Assembly: GCA_023473585.1 (NCBI GenBank)
Contig: JAMCYU010000001.1
Span: 66,507 to 130,506 of the forward strand
DNA from: Patescibacteria group bacterium
GTDB lineage: Bacteria; Patescibacteriota; Microgenomatia; JAMCYU01
Direction: 5' to 3'
Length of the DNA: 64,000 nucleotides
Positions 24,707 through 63,527 of this stretch are shown here, in pieces. Numbering within the stretch: the stretch's first letter is position 1; each line of letters opens with the position of its first letter. Position numbers and translations under genes: made by a program. Below the pieces are notes generated by a model that worked only from the letters and a program-made list of their open reading frames with translations, made no database searches and was not told where the DNA came from.

Positions 24707-26655
24707 AAAAATTTAAGAATTAAAGCCGAATTATTTTCGAAAACGACATTATAAGGAATATAAATATTTTCCCTAAAACCCTCTTCTTCTTTCTTTAAAT
24801 ATAACGTATTTAGATGATATTTGGAAATAAACTCCTTCTGAAAAATTAGCCCGTCTTTCTTTTTTTCCGGATTAAAAAACTCTGAAAGCTCTTTTTCCCT
24901 CTGAACATTATTTTTTAAGGTGTTTTCTGCCATCAGTTTATGAGAATAATAGGTATTTCTTTCGGAAACTACGGAAACATACATCGAGAAAAGATTCTCT
25001 CCGGTTGGCGGTAAAAGGATAATATCGTCAGGTTTGGTTATTTTTTTAAGAGTTAAAAGACTTTCGGTCGTACTTTTATCCAAGACAAAATAAGTTCTGC
25101 TCGCTGCGGTCCTTACGGTCGTTGGAAGGGAAAGTAAAATAATAAAAAGACTCCCAATAACGGTTAAATACTTATCCCTTGAAAAAAAGTGTTTGAGGAC
25201 AAAAACCGTGAGAATATTGCCGATTATTAAACTGTAATAAAAAAATTGAATCGTATTGCCGACACTGCCTTTTTGAATAAAAAAAAGCGGTAGTATCATC
25301 CCCGTTATAAAAGCCGTTAATAAAAAGAGGGAGAATTTCGAAAAGGGAAGTTTTTTTAAAAGATACAAAGGCATGATAAAAAAACCGACGACTCTTATCC
25401 CTAAGTTTCCGGCAATAAAAAGAAAAAGTTCGGCAATTCTTAATCTGACAACGGCAAAGAGATTATGGGTTGCCCAATAATATTGTTCTTTGAGAGCCCA
25501 TTCCGGAACATTCAATCTGTCTTTATTTTCTACCATCGTGTGTAAAAACCAAAACGGTGCATACGTAAGAAATGACGAAGAATCCTTTCCGGACACGGGT
25601 AAAAAAACCAAGAGGCCACAAAGCAAGGTAAAAAAATAAACGATTAGAAAATCATGTCTTTTTTTGAAGATGTTAACCATCGCCACTGCCCCTAAACCAA
25701 TCAAGAGTATTATCCCCGCATAAACTTTAAAAGAAATTAAGAAACCGGCAAGAATTACAAGCGGAATTTCCATTCTTTCTTTTTCGATTAAATATTTATA
25801 AAGGCAAAAAATAATAAGGTAGAAAAGACTAAGAGAAAGGATTACCGACGGATTGAGAATACTGCCAAATGTTTGGCTGCTCCAGAAAGTTGATTCACCC
25901 CAAAGAAAATTCATCCCCAGCCAAAAGGGCAAAAGATAAGAAAAACTGCCGGCCACATAAGTTAAAATAACCAAAATATCGGCAAAAAAATAGCTTTTAA
26001 ATAATTTACGGCCCAAAACAAAAGCCGATAATCCCAAAAACAACGAAAAGAAAAACAAAAAATAATTATAATAAAGATTGATTATCGGTATTTGGGTAAA
26101 ACGATAGATTGTCCCGATAAATAAATGAGTAAAATAATGGTAATTAGTCACAACTTCAGGGGCGAATCCGGGGTGTGTCGGTGGGACATTTTTAGACAAT
26201 TCGCGACTTAAGCTGATAATCCACATGGAGTCACCAGAATCTTTCATTTTTATTGTCCCGCTGTTTTCGTCATAGCCACAGCCCGGGAAAGAAGAAGATT
26301 GGAAAAGGCTAAGAATCATTATCAGCAGTAAGGAAACTATTATGGGCAGTGATTTTAAGTTCTTGAGCAGATATTTTTTCTTAAACAACTCGATAAGAAA
26401 AACAATGAAGGCAACCGCAATCATAAAATCTGCTAAAAATTTGATTTTAAAAAGACCGGAAAAAAAATATAAAGCTGAAGAAACCGTTATTCCCATTCCC
26501 AAACTTAGGACTAATCTTTCTAATTTCGTCAGATTGATTTTTAAAAAAGAGAGAACAACAAAACCCGGTGAAACGGCAAAGATAATAATTGAAAGGAAGA
26601 ATAAGACGAATCGCCAAATAGTACTAAATAGTTCCATAAGATTTACCCTTCCCAA
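24703..26655 (-). CDS. Large polytopic membrane protein, function unknown (possible GT-C)
   Basis: 650 aa, mostly hydrophobic; operon context only. Confidence 0.35.
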   Translation of the reverse strand: MGRVNLMELFSTIWRFVLFFLSIIIFAVSPGFVVLSFLKINLTKLERLVLSLGMGITVSSALYFFSGLFKIKFLADFMIAVAFIVFLIELFKKKYLLKNLKSLPIIVSLLLIMILSLFQSSSFPGCGYDENSGTIKMKDSGDSMWIISLSRELSKNVPPTHPGFAPEVVTNYHYFTHLFIGTIYRFTQIPIINLYYNYFLFFFSLFLGLSAFVLGRKLFKSYFFADILVILTYVAGSFSYLLPFWLGMNFLWGESTFWSSQTFGSILNPSVILSLSLFYLIIFCLYKYLIEKERMEIPLVILAGFLISFKVYAGIILLIGLGAVAMVNIFKKRHDFLIVYFFTLLCGLLVFLPVSGKDSSSFLTYAPFWFLHTMVENKDRLNVPEWALKEQYYWATHNLFAVVRLRIAELFLFIAGNLGIRVVGFFIMPLYLLKKLPFSKFSLFLLTAFITGMILPLFFIQKGSVGNTIQFFYYSLIIGNILTVFVLKHFFSRDKYLTVIGSLFIILLSLPTTVRTAASRTYFVLDKSTTESLLTLKKITKPDDIILLPPTGENLFSMYVSVVSERNTYYSHKLMAENTLKNNVQREKELSEFFNPEKKKDGLIFQKEFISKYHLNTLYLKKEEEGFRENIYIPYNVVFENNSALILKFL

Positions 26656-51722: not shown

Positions 51723-52445
51723 TTATTTTTCGACTTTTTCCGCCCAATAACGGCTGGCTAAATAGAGAGTTTTAAAAGTCCCGGCATCAGACCAAAAGCC
51801 GTCAAGCTTAGCCCAACGTAATTTTCCTTCACGAAGATAACAATTATTGACATCCGTTATCTCCAGTTCCCCCCTGTCTGAAGGTTTAATACTTTTAATA
51901 TGAGAAAAAACTTTATTGTCGTAAAGATAAAGACCGGTCACCGCAAAATTACTTTGCGGTTTTTTGGGTTTTTCCTCAATCGCCATAATTTTTTTAGAAT
52001 CTTCTTTGTCAAAAACCGGCACGCCAAAACGCTCGGGATCCGGAACCTCTTTTAGGAAAACCATCGCCCCGTCTTCAAAAGACTTAACCTGCTCGGAAAT
52101 ATCAACATCGGTCGTATTGTCGCCTAAAATGGCCGCGATTGACTCCCCGTCAGCAAAATCCTCAGCCAAAGCCAAAGCCTGAGCGATCCCTCCTTCTTTT
52201 TCCTGATAGGCAAATTCTAAATGCTTAACTCCTAATTGTTTACCGTTTCTTAAAACCTGAATAAAATGACCGGCGTGAGGTCCGCCGACAACCACCAAAA
52301 TTTCCGAGATATCGGCCCGCAATAAAGTTTCCAGAGGATAAAAAACCATGGGTTTATTGTAAATAGGTAAAAGATGCTTGTTCGTGGCGTAAGTTAAAGG
52401 ATAAAGCCTGGTTCCCAAGCCTCCGGCTAAAACAACCCCTTTCAT
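51723..52445 (-). CDS. rmlA: Glucose-1-phosphate thymidylyltransferase-like sugar nucleotidyltransferase (short form)
   Basis: MKGVVLAGGLGTRLYPLTYATNKHLLPIYNKPMVFYPLETL; start at internal ATG 52445 with AGGAGG about 8 nt upstream; the track's 36-aa N-terminal extension rejected. Confidence 0.65.
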   Translation of the reverse strand: MKGVVLAGGLGTRLYPLTYATNKHLLPIYNKPMVFYPLETLLRADISEILVVVGGPHAGHFIQVLRNGKQLGVKHLEFAYQEKEGGIAQALALAEDFADGESIAAILGDNTTDVDISEQVKSFEDGAMVFLKEVPDPERFGVPVFDKEDSKKIMAIEEKPKKPQSNFAVTGLYLYDNKVFSHIKSIKPSDRGELEITDVNNCYLREGKLRWAKLDGFWSDAGTFKTLYLASRYWAEKVEK

Positions 52446-52696
52446 AGTAAAATCCCTCCTAATAAAATGATACTTAAGAGCCCAATAAGCGTATATTCTA
52501 TCACAATTTTTAAATTTAGGTTCTTTTCCCAAAGATGATGAAAAATTCCCCAAAAAATGTAAGTTAGGGCCATAAGGAGGGAAATTTGAAATTTAACGAT
52601 TTTATCGGGATGATAAATAAAACAAGTCACGCCTAAACCTATTAATAAAACTAAAATCAGATAATGCCAAAAATGAGTTTTAATTTCTTCCATCAT
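52442..52696 (-). CDS. Small membrane protein (2-3 TM), function unknown
   Basis: Hydrophobic 85-aa ORF translationally coupled (4-nt overlaps) between CAP-domain gene and rmlA; start chosen at MMEEIK. Confidence 0.3.
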   Translation of the reverse strand: MMEEIKTHFWHYLILVLLIGLGVTCFIYHPDKIVKFQISLLMALTYIFWGIFHHLWEKNLNLKIVIEYTLIGLLSIILLGGILL

Positions 52697-53664
52697 ATAA
52701 TCACTCCTTGACTCGTCACCCAAAGAACCCCCAAAAGAGCTCCCAGGAAAATCAAATGAGCCAGGTTATGACCGCTGACTCTCACAATCCGTCGACGCCA
52801 GATAAGAATACCGTCCGAAGCTAAAATGAGTAATAACCCACCGGTTAAGAGACTGGCTAAATTTTTAGAAGTGGCAAAAAAATTAACTAAGGGATGACGC
52901 GAAACGCCGGCGACCCTAAGAGCCGAAAGGGCCATCGGCGGAAGATTCTGGCTGATAATAACGGGTCTTTCTGTGGGAGAGGGTGAGGGTTCCAGGGTGG
53001 CCCCAGGTGAAGCGACGGCTTCAGACGGCGAGGTTGGTAACGGTGTTTGGGTTTGGGCGGCCCGGGGCGAAATCGTGACGGGTTTTTGGACCAAAGTGTT
53101 CCGTTGTCTGGCGCCAAACATCTGCACAACCAAAGTTGTCTCCTCTCCTCCTAACCGATTATTAACCACGGCAAAACCGATTTCCTGATATTCTCTTTTT
53201 AAGATATTTTCCTTATGTGAGGGCGAACCCATCCAAGCCGACACAACCGATTCGGAATCGTTAAAATCACGGGCCAGATTTTCACCGGCGTAAAGATATT
53301 GGTAACCGGCCTGACTTATAAAAACCCACGGCGTTGTCCCGTCCGGAGCGTTATGAGCCCAATAATTTTTACTGAACATATCATTGGCTTTAGCCAAAGC
53401 GGCGTCTGAGAGTTGACCGTTTAAAGAAACCGGCTGCAAACCTGCCTCCGCCCTTCTAAGATTGGTTAAATTTAAAAGTTTTTCGACATTAATGTCGGTC
53501 GCGTAACCTAAAATATCGGGCCGTGTCAGTTTCAAAACCCTGAAGGAAAGCTGCAGTAATAAAAAAAGCGTTATGTAAAAAATTAAAGCGGAAAAATGAA
53601 GCGTTTTTGGACGAAAATTATTACTTTCGTGGGGCAAAAAATAATGAGCAGCCAAAGTTTTCAT
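52693..53664 (-). CDS. CAP/SCP/PR-1 (YkwD-like) domain surface protein with Pro/Ser/Thr linker and C-terminal TM anchor
   Basis: N-terminal signal-anchor, CAP block (GENLARDF...SAWMGSPSHKENILKREYQEIGFAVV), TPLPTSPSEAVASPGATLEPSPSPT linker, C-terminal hydrophobic helices. Confidence 0.6.
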   Translation of the reverse strand: MKTLAAHYFLPHESNNFRPKTLHFSALIFYITLFLLLQLSFRVLKLTRPDILGYATDINVEKLLNLTNLRRAEAGLQPVSLNGQLSDAALAKANDMFSKNYWAHNAPDGTTPWVFISQAGYQYLYAGENLARDFNDSESVVSAWMGSPSHKENILKREYQEIGFAVVNNRLGGEETTLVVQMFGARQRNTLVQKPVTISPRAAQTQTPLPTSPSEAVASPGATLEPSPSPTERPVIISQNLPPMALSALRVAGVSRHPLVNFFATSKNLASLLTGGLLLILASDGILIWRRRIVRVSGHNLAHLIFLGALLGVLWVTSQGVII

Positions 53665-53688
53665 GTAGATATATTATATCGAAGATAA

Positions 53689-53739
53689 ATGAGTGAAACA
53701 AGAAAAGCATCTTCGATTAATTCGTTTCACTCATTATAT
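53689..53739 (-). promoter_or_regulatory. Promoter/leader element upstream of CAP gene: 26-nt motif (53714-53739, TATAAT on minus strand) plus 11-bp inverted repeat ATGAGTGAAAC/GTTTCACTCAT forming a leader hairpin
   Basis: 26-nt exact repeat of 4639-4664; inverted repeat arms 53689-53699 and 53723-53733. Confidence 0.4.
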
Positions 53740-53772
53740 GGCCAAAAGTTGTCTTTGGTCAAGCAAAAGAAG

Positions 53773-55107
53773 CTAGCGGCAGATTCCTGGCAGGAGCAAA
53801 CACCACCATGGTTTTTGGTTTTCTGAAAGCGAACTTACTTGTGAGGCAACGCTCGGCACAAAATCGGTTTTGACGGGGTTATTAATCACTTCCGCTCCGG
53901 CTGTTTTCGGTTCGGAAGAAGGCAAGGCGATCCCTGGAATGGCGGCTATAGCCTTATAAGCGTTAATTCTGCCTTTTAACCAATAATTACCGGTTCCGGC
54001 AATTTTATCGGTATTTTCCTCAATCAGATTACGAACTTGACTGGAGGAAAGAGTCGGATCCGCGCCGAACAAAAGACCGGCTAAACCTGAAACCAGGGGC
54101 GTGGCCATCGAAGTTCCCGAACCCAAGTCATAGTTTAACTGTTTGTTAATTTTATAAGTGTGGTTGGGAAAGGTGGAAAAGATGTTCACGCCCGGCGCCG
54201 CCAGATCGACCCAACTGCCGAAACTGGAAAAATCGGCTTTCTGATCGTTCTCGTCAGTCGCGGCCACGGCCAAACAATTTTTATAATAAGCCGGGTAGGT
54301 CGGCGATTTGTTCGCCGAGTTGCCGGCCGCACACGCCAAAACCACCCCTTTCCCCCAGGCATAATCAACCGCTCTTTCTAAAGTTTTGGAACGATTCTGA
54401 CCCCCAAGACTTAAATTAATAACCTTAGCGCCGCTGTCAGCTGCCTTATAAAGGCCTTCGGCAATCCAGGAATAATAACCAAAACCCTTATCGTCCAAGA
54501 CTTTAAACGATAAAAGACGCGCGTTAAAACCTAAACCGGCAATCCCTAAAAGATTATTGGTCTCGGCGGCGGCAATACCGGCCACGTGGGTCCCGTGACC
54601 GTAAAGATCATCGTTAGTTTGACTTGAAGTTAAATTAACCCTTAAGTCAACTTTATTTTTCAAGTCTTCGTGATCCTCGTCAATGCCGCTGTCTAAAATA
54701 GCGATTTTGGCACTTTGCGAACCCTTATTGATATCCCAAGCCTCGGGCGCCAGAATTTTGCCCAAAGACCATTGTTTACTAAAATAAGAGTCATTGGGCA
54801 CAAAACTGCCATAAGCTTGCGCTAAATAATCCGGTTCGGCGTATTCAACGAAAGGATTTTTTTCAAAATTCTTCAGATGTTTGTCAATGTCCTGATCGGG
54901 AATTTTAATGGTAAAGGTCTGGGGTAAAGATAACTTCCGTTCAATGCCTAAGCCTAATTTCTTACTGACTTCATCTATCTGTTTCTCATTAACCTCATCC
55001 TGAAATTTAACGATAATTTCGTCCGTGGCTGATTCTGTCTTTTGGGCCAAAACAGGCGAAGGGAAAAGGAGAAAAAAGCTTAAAACTAAAAAGATTTTCT
55101 TAAACAT
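53773..55107 (-). CDS. Secreted subtilisin-like serine protease (peptidase S8) with N-terminal propeptide
   Basis: Signal peptide MFKKIFLVLSFFLLFPSPVLA; catalytic triad blocks DSGIDEDHEDL (Asp), HGTHVAGIAAA (His), GTSMATPLVSGLAGLL (Ser). Confidence 0.8.
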   Translation of the reverse strand: MFKKIFLVLSFFLLFPSPVLAQKTESATDEIIVKFQDEVNEKQIDEVSKKLGLGIERKLSLPQTFTIKIPDQDIDKHLKNFEKNPFVEYAEPDYLAQAYGSFVPNDSYFSKQWSLGKILAPEAWDINKGSQSAKIAILDSGIDEDHEDLKNKVDLRVNLTSSQTNDDLYGHGTHVAGIAAAETNNLLGIAGLGFNARLLSFKVLDDKGFGYYSWIAEGLYKAADSGAKVINLSLGGQNRSKTLERAVDYAWGKGVVLACAAGNSANKSPTYPAYYKNCLAVAATDENDQKADFSSFGSWVDLAAPGVNIFSTFPNHTYKINKQLNYDLGSGTSMATPLVSGLAGLLFGADPTLSSSQVRNLIEENTDKIAGTGNYWLKGRINAYKAIAAIPGIALPSSEPKTAGAEVINNPVKTDFVPSVASQVSSLSENQKPWWCLLLPGICR

Positions 55108-55174
55108 AAAAATAACAATGTTAAATTAATATAATAAAAAAGATTCTTTGTCAATGGAGCAAAATTATATAGGA

Positions 55175-55966
55175 TTAGTGTCTGGAAATGACTTCAACCA
55201 AATCAATTCTTTCTTGCTGAAGATAATCATTTTTAACCCATGAAAGGTCTAATTCAACTTTCTTAACGACCTCTTTTCCGGGTTCTGACTGGTAGATGAC
55301 TTCACCAAGCGGCGAAACTACCAGGGAGGGTTGTGTTTGAGGCACCTCGGCATTATTAACACTACAAACAAAATATTGATTTTCAAAAGCTCTGGATATT
55401 ACCAAATGACTTTTGAGAGAATCTCCGGGTTTAATGGCATTATTAAGATGAAAAACTACTTGTGCGTCTTGTTTTTTTAAATATTTCCACTGCTCGGGAA
55501 AAACAAGTTCTCTGCACATTTGTATACCGAATCTGACGCCATTTTCTTCATAAACTTCTAATTTATTCCCTTGCTTAAAATGTTTTCTGTCTAAAGTAGC
55601 CAGATTATTCTTAAAATAATATTTTGTTCCTGATTTGCTAACAATAACCGTGGCATTATACCAATCATTAGTGAATTTATAAGCAGTCCCAAAAAGACAG
55701 AGACAATTTTTTTCTTTAACAACAGCTTCTATTTTTAAAATCCCCTCTTTTATCTCTTTAAAATTAAGCTGTCCCGGGTAATTATCGTCTTCTGGATAGT
55801 AACCAGACAACATGCCTTCAGGAAAAACTATCCATTCATTTTTTTCTGAACCATAAATGATTTTTAAAATTTTATTAAGATTATGGGCTATTTTTCTTGT
55901 TACTATAAGCTGAGCAATTTTAACTATCATTAACTGAATTATAGCAAAAGGCTTTATCTTTCCCAA
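55175..55966 (-). CDS. Carbon-nitrogen hydrolase (nitrilase superfamily) protein
   Basis: E-K-C triad context: WIVFPEGMLSGY (Glu), LDRKHF (Lys), GIQMCRELVFPE (Cys); 9-nt gap after adhesin gene. Confidence 0.5.
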   Translation of the reverse strand: MGKIKPFAIIQLMIVKIAQLIVTRKIAHNLNKILKIIYGSEKNEWIVFPEGMLSGYYPEDDNYPGQLNFKEIKEGILKIEAVVKEKNCLCLFGTAYKFTNDWYNATVIVSKSGTKYYFKNNLATLDRKHFKQGNKLEVYEENGVRFGIQMCRELVFPEQWKYLKKQDAQVVFHLNNAIKPGDSLKSHLVISRAFENQYFVCSVNNAEVPQTQPSLVVSPLGEVIYQSEPGKEVVKKVELDLSWVKNDYLQQERIDLVEVISRH

Positions 55967-55975
55967 AGAAGAGCA

Positions 55976-58900
55976 TTACGAAGAGCGGCGGGAGAAAAAG
56001 TAGAAAGCTAAAGCTAAAAGTCCTAATCCGCCCAGAACCCAAATTAACTTACTGCCTCCGCCTAAAATACCGTTCGTGGCGCCGGTATTCGTCCCCGACG
56101 ATGGCTGTGTCCCCGCTTGAGGCTCTGCTCCGGCCGCTGGACTGCCTTCGGTTCCTTGTCCGAGCACTTCTCCGCCGGCCACACCACCGGCCACCGGTAA
56201 GGGCTGGGTCTCTCCGGCTGATTGGGTTCCCGGCGAGGGTGAAACTTCAACATAAGTTATTGAGCCGCCGTCGCCGACTAAATCTGAAGCATTCCCGGCT
56301 TTATCAATGGCGCGAAGAGCATAATAGGTTTCTCCACTCCAGGGAATACTATTATCAAGGTAATTTATGTCTTCGTTCGGCACTCCGCCTCGTTCTCCAA
56401 TTTTCGTTCCGTTGTCCGCTGTAAAGTCACGCTTGTCAGAACGGTAGATAAAAACTTTATAAAAATCGCTACTGTCCGGATTTTTCCAGAATATTTTAAA
56501 GGCGTTGGCCCCGGCTCTGTCTTTACGGTAATTAGTGGGTGTTTTGGGATTGTTCCAATCAACCGTTGTTGAAGTTTCGCTTGATGCTGATTCTCCTCCG
56601 CCGGTCGCCGCCACTTTAAAATAATATTTTCCCTGCTCATTGACGATCGCGGTGGTTGTTTCGATTGAACCGGTTTCGCCGTTTAATAAACTCCCGAAAG
56701 CCAGTTCCGGACCACCCTCTTTATGATAATAAAATTGGGCCTGAATCGGCTCGCCCTTAGTTTGCAGCGCCGTATAGGAAAGTTTAAAAACCGGGGTGTT
56801 TTTATATTCGGGTAAAGTGGTGATTTGCACGGTCAAATTAGCGGCTTGAGCCGGTTTCGCGTAAGTTAAACCGAAAAGCAACGGTGCGACCAAAATCATC
56901 ATCTTGATTAATTTTCTTAATTTACCCAGGTTTTTCAAAGCCAAGCCCAGGAAAATCATTAAAATAGCTAAGATCAACCAGCCTGTTTCCGCTCCGGTCG
57001 CGGCGCCTAAAACTTTTCCTGTTTCAGTTGAGGCTCCCAAAACTTGCTGGATTGTTCCGCCAATACCGGCGGAAAGACTGACTCCGGGTATTAAGTTAAC
57101 CCAAGACCAAGCCGGATCAGTATAAGTTTTGTAATTATCCGCAGCATTTAAAACCCGATTATTACCCCAGGCCAGAGCGACATTAGGATATTTGCCTTCC
57201 TGTAAACTGCTGTCTGTTTTGGCTTGATAAGTGATCGTCACAATCGCATCCGGATTAAGATTTCCCAAACTCCAAACAATATTTTGACCGGTAACTGTCG
57301 GTTCAGAAGCGCCAGTCGTACTGCTTGCCACATAACCAAACCCAATCGGTAAAGTATCCCGAACCGAAACATCTCTAGCGATAATTTTTGAAGTATTGGT
57401 TACGGTTAAAGTATAAGTTACGGTTCCTCCCGGACCCATTGAACCAAGAATATTATTAATTTTACTTAAGGTCAAAGTTATTGGCTGAAGTTCGTTACCA
57501 AAATTCGTGCAAAAAGGCTGTCGAACGAGATTAGTTACGAATTCGCCACCACGTGGCTGACCGTTACATTCCTCACCACCGTAAGAAGACCCGGAATTAA
57601 TCGTCAAATCGTAGTAATTCGGATCAACCGGCCAAGTTTGATCCCAACCCGGTTGAGCGGTTTCGGTCAGACGATAATTACCAGCTCTTAATCCGGTAAA
57701 TTCAAAGTAACCATTATCATTTGTCTGCACACAATTACCATTATCCTGCTCGGTAAACCTAAAGGTCGGTTCTTCACTCGGGCTTAAACAAATTTCCCAA
57801 CCACTTAAGGCCGGTTCTCCTTCATCCCAAAAACCATTACCATTATAATCATCCCACTTCCAGCCACTAACTTCTCCTAACTTGAAGTTGCCAAAATTCA
57901 TATCAGTTGTTTCTTGACCGGGATTAACGACAACCGTCTGACAATCGGAATCTGTCGGTTGAGTTCTTTGCCAACCTTTTTGAGATTCTTCACAAACCTG
58001 ATAAGTTCCGGAAATAACGTTTTCAAAGGTGTAAGTTCCGCTTTCCGTCGCTGTTGTCGTCGTTCTCAAAATCGTGCCTTCGATATCCTTTAATTGAATT
58101 GTCCATTCCGATAACCCTCCTTCATTTTCTTCTCTAGAACCATTAACATTAATATCCTCGTATTTCAAACCGGAAATCGAACCGTAATGAAGATTGCCGA
58201 AATTTTTACCGGTGTTATCTCTGTCTCCGGAATGATTAATAATCGCTTTCCGGCATCTTGGAGCTTCATCGGTTGCTCGCGACTGATTGGCAAAACCCTC
58301 TTTTCCTCGAGGATCAGTCTGAATCCACCCTGATGGTAAAACTTCACAAAGGTAATATGTTCCCAAAGACAAACCATCAGCGCGATACTGACCGGTGATT
58401 CCGGTGTGTCCAGTTATTAATTCATCAACTTTATTCCAACCCTCTTCTGCCGCTTTGTAAACTCTGATTGTCCATTGATCTAAATAAGGCTCTCCCGCGT
58501 TATATTTACTATTATCATTTAAATCTTCATATTTTTTGCCTTGGATCATTCCTAATCTGAAATTACCAAACTTAATGATTTTTTCCTCTCCCAAGGTCAA
58601 ATCAACGTTCTGGCAAAGATCGGTCGTGTTCGTCCAACCCTCCGTTAAGTTTTCTTCTCTAACTGAATATTCTCCCGGAACCAAATTGGGAAAAACCGCA
58701 TTCCCGTTTTGGTCGGTGTCCTCCGTTCCTTCCCCAATCATTTGACCTCCACAGTCGAAACCCTCGTAAACTCCCATTTCCCAACCAGCTAAACCACGAT
58801 CATTACCGTTTTCCAAACCATCCTGATTATTATCTTCAAATTTATGAGCCGTAATTTGACCTAACTTGGTATTGATAAAAGTACAGGTGCCTCCGTCTTC

Positions 58901-61900
58901 GGTAACGGTCAAAGTCGCGGATCGGTCTTCGGTATTTAAATCACTGCATAATCCGGCCACTGATTCGGCTTGATAGGTTAAATCATTTTCCGAACTTTCC
59001 CTCACCCTATAAGTGCCAACCGGAATAACGGCGTCCTGACCGGTAATAAAAGATCCATCAATTCCGTCTATAGCAAATGACCAAGAGTTAGGTGAAGCGT
59101 CTCCTTGAGAAACGACTTTTTCAAAGGTAACTCTTCCGTAAGTTGTGGCCGGAGCATTCCCAAAATCTTTACCGGTTGCGTTTGATCCTTGAGTTATTGT
59201 CCAGTAACCGTCAGGCATTGGATAAGTTTGGGTGTAGCCGTTTTGCGTTACCTCACCGATAATGACATTGCCAGAAATGTTGGGCAAAGAAAACGTATAA
59301 TTACCGGAATCATCAGTTAACGTCTGGGTAATTACTTTATAGATCTCAACATGCAAAGCTCCCGTATCGTTGCTTGGGTAAAAATCACTGATTTGAAATT
59401 TAAGAGCCGCGCCGCTACCGGTTACCATCTGCCAATAAACATGGCTTGCATTGTACGCTCCCCAATTCGGCGAAGTTCCGTCGATCTGCAAATCAAGCAG
59501 GGTTGGCCCGTAACTTTCGTAATGCTGAACATAATCCGTCCAACCGGTATTGGGCGCGCGTTTGGAATATTTGGCGTCGGCCGTAATCCCATCACCCGCG
59601 TCATAGGTGTTGGAAACCCTAATGGCATAAGCGATCCCGCTATTTAATACAGGCGAAGTAACTTCAGGCGTATTTAAAGCCTGGACATCGCTTTCCCATG
59701 CTTTCTGTCCGACAAAAATCGTCCAATCCGAAAGACCCGATTCTCCTTCATCTTTAATTCCATCCCCATTTAAATCATTGAATTTCACCCCAGTGATTTT
59801 CTTATTAAGCGGATCGTTTTCAAAATTATAAGTTTCCTGTCTATTTACTTGATAAACACCACCTTCTGGGGCAACTTGAATCCACCCTGGACGAGAACCT
59901 TCAGCAACATAAATTCCATCATTAACTACCTCACAAATCCTTCCAAATTCATAACCACCTTCTTCATCGGTCGGGGTCTTGGAAATAATTCTGTAGATGT
60001 TAACCGTTAATGAACCAGAATTGTCCCCATACCCGCTGTCCCAAATGCTAAAGTTGGCCGGTGAACCACTGCCGGTATAAATTGTTGAGTAACGATGAGT
60101 GGGATTATATTCGCCCCAATCAATGTTTGAACCACTGATTAAGACATCTAAGGCATTCGTCCAGACTGGTGGAAAAACATCCTCTCCTTTTTTCCATCCC
60201 GGCCCATAACTCCAATCTGGTCTATCTGAATATTCAGCATCGGCTTGGCCAGAACTTCCACCGGCTCCTGGAGTAATATAAGTATAAGTTCCCGAAACTT
60301 CTACATAATAATCTTCACTATTGTTAAGGGAAACCGAAGAAGGATAACTGTTACCATTAGGCAAAACATTAACAGTGTCAATTTTTTCCAGAAGATAAAT
60401 TGGCCAATCTTCGACTCCTTCTTCGGTGTCAGCATTTATTTTCCGCCCGGAAATTTCACCACACCACTTACATTCGTATCCCAAAGCTTCTACCCAGTTA
60501 ACGGCAATTTGACCCCATGTTTGACATCCTGACCAAATCGTGTTGGTAGCATGAAGTCGAACATTTATATCACCAGTTAAATTAGGAACTGCAACCTCAA
60601 TCGTGTTCCAAAGCTCGGTACTATCTAAAACATCAGTGTAGTGAGCCGTTAAAACTCCATTGACATAAACATCATAATCATCAAAATTTGAAAGACCATC
60701 TAAAGCCCGAATTTTGAGTTTATTAACATATTTGTTACCCGCATGAATGACAAAAGAGGCATCTCTTTCTACTTCACTTCCACCACATTCAGTATTTCCT
60801 ACAATTAAGCCGAAAGCAGGAACGGGCGTTCCGTCTCGCCCGCCATAATTCCCCGTCCCCGGATCAGCTCCCCAACCGGAAGCATTATGAGCAATTTCAC
60901 TGTCACTATTCCCCAAATCAATAGAATCTACCAGTCCATCATTAGTTGGCTCACCAACCTCACAAATACCACTTTGTTCGATTAGCTCACAGGAAGAATT
61001 GCAAAGAAATCCTTCTTGCCCATTATTCGCCTGCCCATAGTCACATTTCTCGCTTGACTGATTAACAATTCCGTCTCCACAATAAGGACGAGTACAATCA
61101 TATCCGGAAACTTCTGCCCAGTTAACTGTCACTTGTCCCCAACCGTTACATCCTCCCCAGGCCGGATCGGTTGACTTCAGTGTCACCATCACTGGACCCT
61201 CTAACCCATTTCCGGAAGGACCAGGCACTGGAAATATCTGTGTTCCCCAAATCTCTCCACCTTGACCGTTATCTTTATAATGCGCCAGGAAATTCCCATT
61301 GACTAAAACATCAAAACCGTCTGTTCCGCTAATACCATCAAGCGCTCTAATACTCAATGAAGTAATATATTTACCAGTTTGCCCTATGGTAAATCCTGCC
61401 GTTGCCGAAGTTGGACTAATACATTCATCGCTTCCTGGACCAACTACCATCCCGACCCATTCATGACCATCCCATCCTCCATAGGTAGAATCTGAAGGAT
61501 TTCCGTTCGCTGGTCGCCAACCATTCCTATTAAACGGATCACCATTATTTCCGTCAATATCAATCTTTTGAGAAAAGGTTTGAATTTGGGATTGATTTGG
61601 ACAAGAAGAAGTTGCGTTGTTCCACGTACACGAAGTGGAACAAGAAGTTGTAGAACCGTTATTTTGCCCGAAATCACACTGTTCACCTGAGTCTAAAATT
61701 CCATTACCGCAGAGTTGTTGATCTGGATCAACTTGATAATTATCTTTTTTGTTCTCAAAATCAACGCCATATTCGCCACAGTCGTTATTGGCAACTGTGT
61801 AAGCGTCAAAACAAAAGCCGCCATTTATATCTGTTTGACGAGATCCTGAAGCTACGATTTGATTCGGATCACAAGAAGCTCCCTCTGGTTTACCTTCAAT

Positions 61901-62875
61901 ATTCCAATCGTAGGAAGTATTCGGGTTGAAACCACTACCGTTGATATAAACATGATGACCTTTGGGATAATGATTTATATCTTGCTGGTCTGTTCCACAA
62001 CTTCCATCTGTGGTCCAAATTGACCCACTACCTCCATTTACCGACGTATCAGCATCAGTAAATGTCGTTGCGGCGACAATTCTATCACCATCTTTGATTT
62101 CGGCTTTATAATTCGGCCTGTAGGTTCCGTCTAATTGGTAAGAATAGAAAAGATTACCTTTATCATCTGCTGTCACTTTGGTTTCGAAATTAACCGAAGG
62201 CAAGTCTTGGGAAGTAATAATTAAGGTGTAGCCTTTATTTGGCATAAAGCCCGTGCCGGTGATTAAAACCGTATCCGTCGGCGCGTAGTCGAGTTTGTCG
62301 GTGACAATTTTGGCGCTGCCTTCGGTTTGGAAATCTAAGTCGAGTTTGTCAATCGAGGCGGCCTTGGTATCTTCTAAAATAATCGCTGCTAAATGGCCGT
62401 TTTCTTTTGGTTCCGGAGTAGTTGTGGGTTCGGGCGAAGTTGTGGCTTGGGTTTGATCGCCGTTAACTTGGGGCGTGCTGCTTGCGGTTTCTTCTGGTGG
62501 CGCCTGCGGTTGATTGGCAGGAGAAGTCGTTTCCGGTTTTGGAGCTTCTGAAGGCTGCGGACTATTCGTCAGTTCCGGTGTCACGCTTGGTTTAACCGTT
62601 ATCTCCGGCGTCGGACTCACGTTCGGGGTTGGACTTACTTTTGGAGTAATTTCCGGTTCGGGAGAAGAAGTTATCGCTGGTGTCTCTGTTGGTATTGGTG
62701 TTGGTTCAGCCGTAACGGTCGGTTCCGGTGTCGGCGTTGCCCCTTGAGAATAAACCGGCTGATATAAAAAAATGCCGCTGGAAATTTGGAAAATTAAAGA
62801 AAAAATAGAAAAAACGGAGAAAATCCTTTGCAGTTTTTTAAGTTTCCTTTGACTTAGGTTAAGAAAACTGACCAT
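55976..62875 (-). CDS. Giant (about 2300 aa) multi-domain cell-surface adhesin-like protein, probable sortase substrate
   Basis: Signal peptide; Pro/Thr/Glu-rich linker; 2 Myxococcus-type Cys-rich repeats (CGNGILDSGEQCDFG, CGDGIVNQSSEKCDYG); duplicated about 170-aa modules ending WGQ(V/I)xVNW(A/V)E(V/A)xGY(D/E)C; 5 SdrD-B/CnaB-like repeats (DxNxDGxxDxGExGLxxW(T/E)I); DUF11-like domain; Fn3-like domain; two TM-plus-basic sorting-signal-like segments; track start TTG 62932 rejected in favour of ATG 62875. Confidence 0.7.
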   Translation of the reverse strand: MVSFLNLSQRKLKKLQRIFSVFSIFSLIFQISSGIFLYQPVYSQGATPTPEPTVTAEPTPIPTETPAITSSPEPEITPKVSPTPNVSPTPEITVKPSVTPELTNSPQPSEAPKPETTSPANQPQAPPEETASSTPQVNGDQTQATTSPEPTTTPEPKENGHLAAIILEDTKAASIDKLDLDFQTEGSAKIVTDKLDYAPTDTVLITGTGFMPNKGYTLIITSQDLPSVNFETKVTADDKGNLFYSYQLDGTYRPNYKAEIKDGDRIVAATTFTDADTSVNGGSGSIWTTDGSCGTDQQDINHYPKGHHVYINGSGFNPNTSYDWNIEGKPEGASCDPNQIVASGSRQTDINGGFCFDAYTVANNDCGEYGVDFENKKDNYQVDPDQQLCGNGILDSGEQCDFGQNNGSTTSCSTSCTWNNATSSCPNQSQIQTFSQKIDIDGNNGDPFNRNGWRPANGNPSDSTYGGWDGHEWVGMVVGPGSDECISPTSATAGFTIGQTGKYITSLSIRALDGISGTDGFDVLVNGNFLAHYKDNGQGGEIWGTQIFPVPGPSGNGLEGPVMVTLKSTDPAWGGCNGWGQVTVNWAEVSGYDCTRPYCGDGIVNQSSEKCDYGQANNGQEGFLCNSSCELIEQSGICEVGEPTNDGLVDSIDLGNSDSEIAHNASGWGADPGTGNYGGRDGTPVPAFGLIVGNTECGGSEVERDASFVIHAGNKYVNKLKIRALDGLSNFDDYDVYVNGVLTAHYTDVLDSTELWNTIEVAVPNLTGDINVRLHATNTIWSGCQTWGQIAVNWVEALGYECKWCGEISGRKINADTEEGVEDWPIYLLEKIDTVNVLPNGNSYPSSVSLNNSEDYYVEVSGTYTYITPGAGGSSGQADAEYSDRPDWSYGPGWKKGEDVFPPVWTNALDVLISGSNIDWGEYNPTHRYSTIYTGSGSPANFSIWDSGYGDNSGSLTVNIYRIISKTPTDEEGGYEFGRICEVVNDGIYVAEGSRPGWIQVAPEGGVYQVNRQETYNFENDPLNKKITGVKFNDLNGDGIKDEGESGLSDWTIFVGQKAWESDVQALNTPEVTSPVLNSGIAYAIRVSNTYDAGDGITADAKYSKRAPNTGWTDYVQHYESYGPTLLDLQIDGTSPNWGAYNASHVYWQMVTGSGAALKFQISDFYPSNDTGALHVEIYKVITQTLTDDSGNYTFSLPNISGNVIIGEVTQNGYTQTYPMPDGYWTITQGSNATGKDFGNAPATTYGRVTFEKVVSQGDASPNSWSFAIDGIDGSFITGQDAVIPVGTYRVRESSENDLTYQAESVAGLCSDLNTEDRSATLTVTEDGGTCTFINTKLGQITAHKFEDNNQDGLENGNDRGLAGWEMGVYEGFDCGGQMIGEGTEDTDQNGNAVFPNLVPGEYSVREENLTEGWTNTTDLCQNVDLTLGEEKIIKFGNFRLGMIQGKKYEDLNDNSKYNAGEPYLDQWTIRVYKAAEEGWNKVDELITGHTGITGQYRADGLSLGTYYLCEVLPSGWIQTDPRGKEGFANQSRATDEAPRCRKAIINHSGDRDNTGKNFGNLHYGSISGLKYEDINVNGSREENEGGLSEWTIQLKDIEGTILRTTTTATESGTYTFENVISGTYQVCEESQKGWQRTQPTDSDCQTVVVNPGQETTDMNFGNFKLGEVSGWKWDDYNGNGFWDEGEPALSGWEICLSPSEEPTFRFTEQDNGNCVQTNDNGYFEFTGLRAGNYRLTETAQPGWDQTWPVDPNYYDLTINSGSSYGGEECNGQPRGGEFVTNLVRQPFCTNFGNELQPITLTLSKINNILGSMGPGGTVTYTLTVTNTSKIIARDVSVRDTLPIGFGYVASSTTGASEPTVTGQNIVWSLGNLNPDAIVTITYQAKTDSSLQEGKYPNVALAWGNNRVLNAADNYKTYTDPAWSWVNLIPGVSLSAGIGGTIQQVLGASTETGKVLGAATGAETGWLILAILMIFLGLALKNLGKLRKLIKMMILVAPLLFGLTYAKPAQAANLTVQITTLPEYKNTPVFKLSYTALQTKGEPIQAQFYYHKEGGPELAFGSLLNGETGSIETTTAIVNEQGKYYFKVAATGGGESASSETSTTVDWNNPKTPTNYRKDRAGANAFKIFWKNPDSSDFYKVFIYRSDKRDFTADNGTKIGERGGVPNEDINYLDNSIPWSGETYYALRAIDKAGNASDLVGDGGSITYVEVSPSPGTQSAGETQPLPVAGGVAGGEVLGQGTEGSPAAGAEPQAGTQPSSGTNTGATNGILGGGSKLIWVLGGLGLLALAFYFFSRRSS

Positions 62876-62903
62876 AAAAAATCTTCTGGGCAGAATTACG
62901 GTG

Positions 62904-62932
62904 ATTATATAATTAAAAATACGGGTTGTCAA
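62904..62932 (-). promoter_or_regulatory. Consensus sigma70-type promoter for the adhesin gene (TTGACA-17-TATAAT)
   Basis: Minus strand TTGACA at 62932-62927, exactly 17-nt spacer, TATAAT at 62909-62904, 28 nt to ATG 62875 with AGAAGA SD-like element. Confidence 0.5.
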
Positions 62933-62939
62933 GACTGCC

Positions 62940-63527
62940 TCATTTTTTGGCCAAAACCAAAAGACGATAAAGAGTGGTTCCGGCTGGATAACAGGTTTGC
63001 AAAGTTAAAGTTTCTCCCTGAAGATTTTGTAATGTTTCGGCGACTTTATCGGGACTGACAATTTTTTTATCGGTTACCCTATAGGCGTATTTAAGAGAAT
63101 TATAGTAAACGATAATCTCGTCATTTTTTTCCAGTTTGGAGATGAGATAAAAAACGGCGTTATAACGACTGACGTTTAAGGGCGTATCGCTTGAATGGCC
63201 GAAAATAAAAACATTACCCGTCTCATTTGGCAGGATGCTTCCCTTAGCGTGAGCCACGCCTTTGGTTAAAATCGGTAAATATTCCTGAGGGTTGTTCGCA
63301 TCAACGTTGCTAAAAACTTTCACATTGAGTTCCAGCTTAGGGATAACCAAACCGAATTCTTCGGAAACCGGGGTTATTGTTTTGGGAATGGTTAATTCTT
63401 TGCCTCTTTTATTTTCCAGGTTTCGGTAGCGGATTTCCTCATTGACAATCGGCCAATAAACTAAAGCCAAAATAAGAAGACCTCCGCCAAGCAAAATCAG
63501 CCAGACATAATTTAAAACCTTAGTCAT
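62940..63527 (-). CDS. Sortase family transpeptidase (membrane-anchored)
   Basis: N-terminal TM anchor; IFGHS (His), LTLQTCYP (TLxTC catalytic Cys), LYRLLV (Arg) in canonical order and spacing. Confidence 0.7.
   Translation of the reverse strand: MTKVLNYVWLILLGGGLLILALVYWPIVNEEIRYRNLENKRGKELTIPKTITPVSEEFGLVIPKLELNVKVFSNVDANNPQEYLPILTKGVAHAKGSILPNETGNVFIFGHSSDTPLNVSRYNAVFYLISKLEKNDEIIVYYNSLKYAYRVTDKKIVSPDKVAETLQNLQGETLTLQTCYPAGTTLYRLLVLAKK

Follow-up and report, generated by a model that had tools for sequence, protein, structure and literature searches.

In a 64,000-nucleotide stretch of a Patescibacteria group bacterium from the Microgenomatia (assembly GCA_023473585.1, contig JAMCYU010000001.1, positions 66,507 to 130,506; hereafter the window, with coordinates counted from its first letter), a sortase gene stands directly upstream of a gene for a giant surface protein (Table 1). 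We compared this pair with about 120 Microgenomates loci, 80 of them retrieved via the sortase, 9 via exact sortase proteins, and 31 via the motif described below. From this comparison we tentatively propose that one Microgenomates clade re-specified its sortase from LPXTG to LGAATG, a proline-less motif longer by one residue, with matching changes in the β6/β7 loop of the enzyme, and that family-wide the sortase acts as the maturation protease of a two-module polyprotein, cutting a mid-chain signal so that the adhesin goes to the wall and a tandem-FN3 membrane protein is left behind, with gene fusion and splitting being functionally neutral and repeated. That the sortase of this lineage changed its recognition motif is probable on the sequence evidence, and we lean slightly towards the view that it cuts LGAAT|G and thereby frees the adhesin from the FN3 membrane module.

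A regular-expression scan of the whole giant protein for LP.TG, LA.TG, and NP.TG found none, in line with a sequence-only reading of this stretch, which had recognised no LPXTG or LAXTG near either anchor; the sole near match is LPVAG at residues 2245-2249, and the NCBIfam sorting-signal models had no match to the protein. That reading had also pointed to two segments in which a motif, a transmembrane (TM) helix, and a basic tail follow one another, and both exist, at 56903-57013 and 55979-56047. They are not chance arrangements, since both align position by position with homologous segments of over 100 related loci. The internal segment runs VLGAATG-AETG, WLILAILMIFLGLAL, KNLGKLRKLIK, placing a hydrophobic helix and a positive tail straight after VLGAATG as in a sorting signal, although it does not lie at the extreme C-terminus: 338 residues follow the motif. 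By comparison with its relatives, this segment is the predicted cell-wall sorting signal of the adhesin.

Of the relatives whose substrate gene is complete, 37 have a canonical or nearly canonical motif at the homologous site, with a TM helix and basic residues after it: LPATG in 17, LPSTG in 5, LPAAG in 4, LPGTG in 3, LPETG, LPDTG, and MPATG in 2 each, and LPLTG and LPFTG in 1 each. VLGAST precedes the motif in these relatives, 20 of which encode both modules in one frame (fused) and 17 in two genes (split). The alignments indicate that canonical LPATG is the ancestral motif of the family. Aligning the surface proteins next to sortases in relatives, a check that the sequence-only reading had proposed, thus yielded both an LPATG and an LGAATG motif. 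Its suspicion of a non-canonical motif is favored by the comparison, but the motif indicated is [VI]LGAATG, just upstream of and overlapping TGAETG, and not TGAETG itself.

The LP-less loci, the window included, form one branch of a neighbor-joining tree of the sortases. In all 16 members of this clade, which were found via sortase homology independent of the motif, [VI]LGAATG[SA]xT runs straight into a TM helix; LGAATG is invariant (16/16), while positions -1 and +8 differ between members, as does the upstream VLGAxT copy. Five further database proteins carry an LGAATG-type signal. The distance from Thr-Gly to the membrane is equal in the two groups (TG-[SA]-x-T-x-W-L-I for LGAATG, TG-[AS]-x-T-x-W-L-I for LPATG in the 37 relatives), which makes the Thr-Gly of LGAATG the positional homologue of the scissile Thr-Gly in LPATG. 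One four-codon deletion, VLGA[STLP]ATG to VLGAATG, would yield the motif change. In the split loci L084, L085, L087, and L088, the giant protein ends in VLGAATGSPT, a TM helix, KKGRKLHV, and a stop codon, to all appearances a classical tripartite C-terminal sorting signal save for its pentapeptide.

A motif-based metagenome scan added 31 relatives, which, being chosen by the motif, are uninformative on its invariance. A TM helix directly follows the motif in all 30 that could be placed; the motif lies 25-31 aa before the stop in 14 of these and at 332-352 aa in 15, and one runs off its contig. The family sortase is upstream in 12 of the 16 motif-found loci with enough flanking DNA. Across approximately 379 kb of sequence from the LP-less clade, the 64-kb window included, LP.TG, LA.TG, or NP.TG followed by a TM helix occurs 0 times and LGAATG signals occur 17 times. 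No other sortase-type signal is present in the window, where a single LPPTG, at 25014, is not followed by a TM helix.

The sequence-only reading had taken the sortase and the giant protein for a dedicated pair, and the related loci bear this out. The window sortase has hundreds of homologues, every one of them from Patescibacteria/Microgenomates, and a giant-protein gene adjoins the sortase in nearly all fetched loci. The cassette layout of the window (sortase, giant adhesin with a VLGAxT-motif signal, tandem-FN3 module) is matched in L081 and more than 50 other loci. The split form, seen in many relatives, has a giant protein whose C-terminus consists of G-Q-VLGAST-E-LPATG-[AS]xT, a TM helix, and a basic tail; the next gene, translationally coupled to the adhesin gene and overlapping it by 8-14 nt, encodes a tandem-FN3 membrane protein of about 300 aa. 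At this junction, AAGAAAGGGAGAAAATTAC-ATG-TTT-AA, the basic-tail codons contain a Shine-Dalgarno sequence and the start overlaps the stop, with ATG-TTT-AA (MFKKLIKS...) overlapping the end of the KKGRKLHV tail in split relatives that have it. In the fused form, both modules share one frame, the signal lies 320-350 aa from the C-terminus, and a second hydrophobic helix follows directly.

The window has the fused form, with its two modules in frame. Its closest relative, L081 (GCA_040960625.1), has a sortase 85% identical to that of the window and a fused 2209-aa protein of the same architecture; the junction keeps the same continuous frame with different nucleotides, conservative substitutions, and no Met, and the ratio of nonsynonymous to synonymous substitution (dN/dS) over the hairpin region is 0.19 between the two. 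Because the separately assembled L081 shares the fused frame, the fusion is real. Fused forms are interspersed with split ones across the sortase tree, and both occur in the LPXTG and LGAATG groups, as expected if sortase cleavage separates the modules either way. In one relative (L090, 10661-16198), two open reading frames (ORFs) of 704 and 1104 aa take the place of a single adhesin gene, with the signal and module 2 intact, which may reflect a frameshift, a pseudogene, or an assembly error. Many of the related public metagenome-assembled genome records, among them those of L001, L002, L005, L008, and L010, are titled "uncultured Gammaproteobacteria", "Pseudomonadales", or "Bdellovibrionales"; these titles are probably mislabelled, as gene content and sortase relationships point to Microgenomates.

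The last ~310 residues of the giant protein are a second protein, in which TM2 is followed by two FN3 domains, a linker, and an anchoring TM helix at the C-terminus. TM2 (MMILVAPLLFGLTYAKPAQA), a helix that the sequence-only reading had listed after the internal segment without interpretation, aligns with the N-terminal signal peptides of stand-alone homologues of about 300 aa (P0121-P0140). An AlphaFold2 model of module 2 places two FN3/Ig-like sandwiches at residues 20-215 with a predicted local distance difference test score (pLDDT) above 90, followed by a disordered linker of about 65 aa and a TM helix, and a Foldseek search of this model against the PDB returned tandem FN3 pairs (E ~1e-8). 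In the module-2 alignment, P236, G244, and L247 are nearly invariant, with LP and G-x-[VI]-L-G kept, and the [VI]LG motif is present in 21 of 23 tails. A word-index search with the C-terminal 380 aa gave 22 matches, mostly stand-alone module-2 proteins; a search with the DUF11-plus-signal region gave 1 match, and an exhaustive HMMER search, dominated by multi-DUF11 giants, gave 8 useful full-length matches. We also considered a pilus-like arrangement in which the Lys of an LPKE motif in module 2 accepts the adhesin. We rejected it, as Lys is found in just 10 of 23 tails and module 2 is FN3 rather than pilin; the LPK lysine is unrelated to motif state, being kept in the LGAATG loci L004, L008, and L012 and absent from some LPXTG loci.

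The enzyme itself is a genuine sortase. The 62940-63527 product matches Pfam Sortase PF04203 (E 1.3e-23; 83.5 bits, cutoff 26.6) and the generic NCBIfam model TIGR01076 (47.1 bits, cutoff 39.35), and its AlphaFold2 model (pLDDT 85.8, predicted TM-score 0.81) has the sortase fold with an eight-stranded beta-barrel. The TLxTC, His, and Arg blocks are in canonical order, as the sequence-only reading had noted: H111, C179, and R188 do not vary across 17 aligned homologues, and the TC dipeptide (T178, C179) is kept in 45 of 45 sortases compared. The dN/dS of the sortase is 0.20 between the window and L081, a value indicative of purifying selection, and because His, Cys, and Arg are also intact in all sortases compared, we regard the enzyme as functional. 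The sortase stop codon (62940-62942) is followed 7 nt later by the adhesin-gene promoter, which matches the consensus at 12 of 12 positions, confirming the spacing that the earlier reading had described. On the other side, a TsaD/TsaB-family neighbor shows that the sortase sits at the end of a string of housekeeping genes; a PF00814 neighbor of 97-104 aa directly precedes the sortase in L081, L086, and L090, whereas in L085 and L089 other genes separate the two and the PF00814 gene lies a few hundred bp to roughly 1 kb upstream.

Placing the sortase among the known classes, as the sequence-only reading had proposed, named only its nearest neighbors: it falls under the cutoff of every NCBIfam class model, scoring best with class D (59.7 and 60.6 bits, cutoffs 165 and 140), then class C (55.3, cutoff 160), class E (41.0, cutoff 160), class GN (24.5, cutoff 158), and class F (16.6, cutoff 166), with no match to the class A or class B models. 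Sequence matches in the PDB (3o0p, 4d70, 6ixz, 8t28; E 1e-7 to 1e-6) and Foldseek matches (2xwg, 2w1k, and 6ixz at ~1e-11, the best value, with all of the top 50 being sortases) identify the fold and have class C pilus sortases as the nearest solved relatives. Class assignment from structure was not discriminating, as class C ranks first with A, D, and E within two orders of magnitude. The window sortase lacks the TM helix after the catalytic domain that is a trait of class C pilus sortases, its C-terminus being K195, 7 residues past R188. We therefore treat it as an unclassified sortase of the candidate phyla radiation (CPR), outside the six described classes.

When 15 LGAATG-paired sortases were compared with 30 LPXTG-paired ones, the clearest group differences fell in the segment just ahead of the TLQTC strand. 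The LPXTG-paired enzymes have Y164 in 29 of 30 and L165 in 28 of 30, whereas the LGAATG-paired enzymes have D/E164, Y/F165 (11/15), and L/V/I166 (15/15), an aromatic-aliphatic pair displaced by one residue; Gly171 is present in 14 of 15 LGAATG-paired but only 4 of 30 LPXTG-paired sortases. In the AlphaFold2 model, this segment forms a helix (159-167) in the β6/β7 loop, just before the β7 strand that bears Cys179, and in solved sortases the β6/β7 loop touches the sorting signal (PMC5148588). No clade-specific β3/β4 Tyr was seen among the compared sortases, in which the differences sit in the β6/β7 loop. The pattern fits co-evolution of enzyme and motif, as a correlation across the two groups.

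Taken together, these features suggest how the cassette would work. The protein would be exported via the Sec system, and the precursor would be retained in the membrane by the TM1/TM2 hairpin, whose basic loop would face the cytoplasm, as the positive-inside rule predicts. The sortase would then cleave between Thr1979 (56996-56998) and Gly1980 (56993-56995; ORF numbering) and transfer an adhesin of about 1950 aa to a presumed nucleophile of the cell envelope. The remainder (G-AETG, TM1, loop, TM2, both FN3 domains, and TM3) would stay as a membrane protein equivalent to the separate partner of the split relatives.

Several points weigh against this proposal. To our knowledge, no biochemistry exists on any CPR sortase. 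The window sortase has Thr165 and not the Tyr or Phe typical of its clade, and the neighbor-joining tree that defines the clade has no support values. Canonical LPXTG substrates may be encoded elsewhere in the clade genomes, as the comparison covered individual loci. The VLGAxT element is conserved even beside LPXTG, and part of the VLGAATG invariance could come from a different function of VLGAxT. Finally, no characterized sortase takes Gly at P4 with Leu at P5, and Ala at P3 is limited to class E enzymes (PMC5148588, PMC8225981).

The most serious alternative, which we consider unlikely although well ahead of the others, is that the signal is a relic. The four-residue deletion would then have destroyed the site, and the adhesin would stay unprocessed in the membrane, anchored through the TM hairpin (fused forms) or a C-terminal TM helix (split forms), while the sortase serves substrates encoded at other places in the genome. 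A single in-frame deletion accounts for the sequence change and both canonical residues, Leu at P4 and Pro at P3, are lost; the conservation of VLGAxT next to LPXTG is also compatible with this history. The sortase follows tsaE/tsaB-type genes, directly or with genes between, as is typical of a general-purpose gene, and some related genomes have a second sortase paralogue and extra substrates. What a relic does not readily explain is that LGAATG-[SA]xT has not drifted in any of the 16 clade members, though their sortases are only ~42-60% identical to that of the window, while the upstream VLGAxT does drift. Gene adjacency is also held throughout the clade, its 379 kb of sequence lack a canonical signal, and in L091 a second substrate, beside a paralogous sortase, also carries ILGAATGSKT. 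For these reasons we prefer a re-specified, working signal.

An improbable alternative is that [QEK][VI]LG(xx)T is the true recognition element, so that the sortase processes or binds both the internal signal and the module-2 linker (GEVLGQGT). The motif stands directly before LPXTG in nearly all relatives and is often duplicated, its Gly and Leu (G244, L247) are nearly invariant in the disordered module-2 linker, and two small proteins from LPXTG-clade loci (L045, L050) have VLGAST and then YAKTG or MAGTG without an LP. However, the module-2 motif lies 34-79 aa from the TM helix and is not accompanied by Thr-Gly, a geometry unlike that of known sortase signals, and the conservation of LPXTG in 37 relatives would be needless if VLG sufficed.

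The sequence-only reading had put forward the C-terminal segment (TGATNG, TM helix, SRRSS) as a second sortase signal and LPVAG as a further candidate, and we now regard either role as very improbable. The segment does have a tripartite look, LPVAG resembles LPXTG, and its LP is nearly invariant in homologues. Nevertheless, TGATNG is kept solely in L081, with unrelated sequence beside that TM helix elsewhere, and LPVAG, which begins 51 and not ~57 residues before the last TM helix, lies in a linker predicted to be disordered. Its counterparts in relatives are LPKE (in many), LPLA, or LPAS, in which the LP alone is conserved and neither Thr nor Gly is. Because no conserved motif was found next to the last TM helix in the relatives examined, we read the C-terminal segment as a plain membrane anchor and keep the internal VLGAATG segment as the candidate signal. 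Least probable of all, to the point of being negligible, is that the giant ORF joins two genes through a sequencing or assembly frameshift: one extra A in the A-run near 56930 (TTGAAAAACCTGGGTAA) would end the adhesin module there (LKKPG*), but the in-frame fusion recurs in L081, with other junction nucleotides and the constrained hairpin described above, and in at least 35 further loci of many lineages.

Comparison with known systems places the cassette close to the housekeeping class A sorting by SrtA of Staphylococcus aureus, with which it shares a Cys transpeptidase that is anchored in the membrane and bears the His-Cys-Arg triad and TLxTC block, substrates with an N-terminal export signal, adhesin domains (SdrD_B, SpaA, DUF11), and a motif/TM/basic tail, and, in its sister lineages, the textbook LPATG. 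It departs from that system in its motif (Gly at P4, Ala at P3, Leu at P5), in the location of its signal, which lies 338 aa short of the C-terminus, ahead of a second TM helix and a folded ectodomain, and in its CPR host; cleavage would leave a membrane protein of about 340 aa in place of a short peptide. A change of motif across a whole lineage has its closest precedent in class E/LAXTG (PMC5148588, PMC8225981), in which the signals of Streptomyces SrtE1 and Corynebacterium SrtE/SrtF have Ala for Pro at P3. Changes in the β3/β4 and β6/β7 loops match LAXTG in these enzymes, whose role is housekeeping (PMC5148588), while the window sortase falls far from class E by score (41 bits, cutoff 160), its motif has not kept Leu at P4, and it shows no clade-specific β3/β4 Tyr. 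Class C and D sortases are the nearest by sequence and predicted fold and likewise adjoin their substrate genes, but the window sortase scores far under their 140-165-bit cutoffs and has no C-terminal TM helix, and module 2 is tandem FN3 rather than a CnaA/CnaB pilin, with the LPKE Lys not conserved. The exosortase/PEP-CTERM, archaeosortase/PGF-CTERM, and rhombosortase/GlyGly-CTERM systems also pair a short motif, TM helix, and basic tail with a dedicated enzyme, and their motifs co-vary with that enzyme across lineages; their enzymes are unrelated polytopic membrane proteins, whereas here the enzyme is a true sortase and the ancestral motif LPXTG.

Sortases are nearly universal in Microgenomates (PMC6744442), and the six described classes use LPXTG, (N/S/P)PXTG, LPXTA, or LAXTG (PMC8225981). 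In the literature that we searched, we found no description of the substrates or motifs of Microgenomates sortases, nor of internal sorting signals that yield two surface proteins from one chain, and queries with the motif strings brought up nothing but unrelated papers on T-cell receptors and gene expression. If LGAATG works as a sorting motif, it would widen the known range of sortase specificity and provide a natural enzyme-motif pair orthogonal to LPXTG for protein ligation, and the internal placement of the signal suggests a route to two surface proteins from one chain. It is plausible that the fast-evolving giant adhesin is a host-attachment factor of episymbiotic ultra-small bacteria, in which case its mode of anchoring would matter for CPR cell biology.

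Table 1. Features of the sortase-adhesin cassette, with window coordinates and the basis of each assignment.
Feature	Coordinates	Strand	Basis or remark
TsaD/TsaB-family ORF, 101 aa	63520..63825	(-)	ORF list; stop overlaps sortase start by 8 nt
Sortase gene	62940..63527	(-)	195 aa; type II membrane protein, N-terminal TM helix and sortase beta-barrel
Sortase N-terminal membrane anchor YVWLILLGGGLLILALVYWPIVN	63441..63509	(-)	Translation; helix 2-41 in AlphaFold2 model
Catalytic His111 within FGHS	63195..63197	(-)	Invariant in homologue alignment
β6/β7 loop segment SPDKVAETLQNLQGE, residues 158-172	63012..63056	(-)	Changes specific to the LP-less clade
TLQTC block including catalytic Cys179	62991..63005	(-)	Homologue alignment and coordinate check
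Catalytic Arg188	62964..62966	(-)	Homologue alignment and coordinate check
Sigma-70-type promoter TTGACA-17-TATAAT	62904..62932	(-)	12/12 consensus; best site of scanned region
Giant surface protein gene	55976..62875 (ORF opens 62932)	(-)	Fusion of adhesin module and tandem-FN3 membrane module
N-terminal hydrophobic export-signal region IFSVFSIFSLIFQISSGIFL	62765..62824	(-)	Kept in relatives as AIFSLFLQIGSGIFY
Upstream VLGAxT copy, VLGAST	57026..57043	(-)	Differs among relatives
VLGAATG, proposed non-canonical sortase motif	56993..57013	(-)	Comparison with relatives
TM1 WLILAILMIFLGLAL, hydrophobic part of predicted sorting signal	56936..56980	(-)	Translation, homologue comparison
Basic cytoplasmic loop KNLGKLRKLIK (predicted)	56903..56935	(-)	Old basic tail and n-region of next signal peptide
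TM2 MMILVAPLLFGLTYAKPAQA, former module-2 signal peptide	56843..56902	(-)	Aligns with signal peptides of P0121-P0140
Two FN3/Ig-like beta-sandwich domains, module 2	56258..56845	(-)	AlphaFold2, Foldseek
Disordered linker	56048..56245	(-)	Holds LPVAG (56186-56200) and VLGQGT (56150-56167); pLDDT <50
C-terminal TM helix LIWVLGGLGLLALAFYFF and SRRSS tail	55979..56047	(-)	Read as plain membrane anchor of module 2
Peptide stretch spanning LGAATG signal GKVLGAATGAETGW			
LPATG-type counterpart peptide GQVLGASTELPATGNPTW			
Module-2 peptides QPLPVAGGVAGGEVLGQGTEG and TNTGATNGILGG			

The ORF of the giant protein (55976-62932, minus strand) spans 2318 aa counted from its first TTG. The true start is almost certainly the ATG at 62875 (MVSFLN...), giving 2299 aa, because the database protein P0144 and the closest relative begin alike; P0144, also 2299 aa, is identical to the window protein across a 243-aa query region. 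In Pfam, the protein contains four SdrD_B and three SpaA (SpaA/prealbumin-like) domains as well as DUF11, types that are typical of Gram-positive wall-anchored adhesins. Over the N-terminal ~1500 alignment columns (window 57100-62875), comparison with L081 gives dN 0.48 and dN/dS 0.37 with dS saturated, and the anchor region and module 2 evolve far more slowly (dN ~0.1), which fits a protein whose binding end diversifies while its anchoring end is conserved. TM1 of the predicted sorting signal is unusually conserved across relatives (xWLILAILMILxGL, with Gly in 16/16); this exceeds the needs of a passive anchor and hints at a specific intramembrane interaction.

The short motif [QEK][VI]LG recurs in disordered linkers of many surface proteins of these genomes and stands directly before LPXTG in adhesins, with sites in the window at 56150-56167 and 57026-57043 and in related loci at L004 7031-8221, L012 5697-6878, and L058 6619-7212. 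The small proteins of L045 (10737-11405) and L050 (17704-18447) are 220-250 aa long and carry VLGAST-DYAKTG or VLGAST-MAGTG ahead of a C-terminal TM helix and basic tail; they represent further Pro-less "xAxTG" variants beside canonical LPATG substrates.

Downstream of the adhesin gene (52442-55966, minus strand) lie genes for a CN-hydrolase, an S8 subtilase whose prodomain is of the fervidolysin type, a CAP-domain protein that has two TM helices at its C-terminus, and a membrane protein of about 90 aa. The CAP-domain and small membrane proteins trail the cassette in most relatives (L081, L084, L085, L088, L090), and the S8 subtilase is present only in the window and L081 among the relatives compared. 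Farther along, about 40 kb of co-directional genes (8341-46631, minus strand) appear to form a very large envelope-glycosylation cluster: five sampled products are membrane glycosyltransferase-like (YfhO, PMT_2, PTPS_related), and in several others a "(Y)PGW" motif precedes a C-terminal TM helix and basic tail. Transfer RNA and Rfam scans of the window gave no matches.

No second sortase is encoded in the 64-kb window, and three related loci have one of about 230 aa near the main gene (L087 7717-8409, L005 7665-8360, L091 8967-9656). Those of L087 and L005 are alike (TLITCVPPGTY), are ~29% identical to the window sortase, and come after a 770-790-aa bitopic protein lacking an LGAATG-type signal. 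The second sortase of L091 is much nearer the main family (LVLQTCYPPGTT) and comes after a 653-aa fused substrate, the bearer of ILGAATGSKT.

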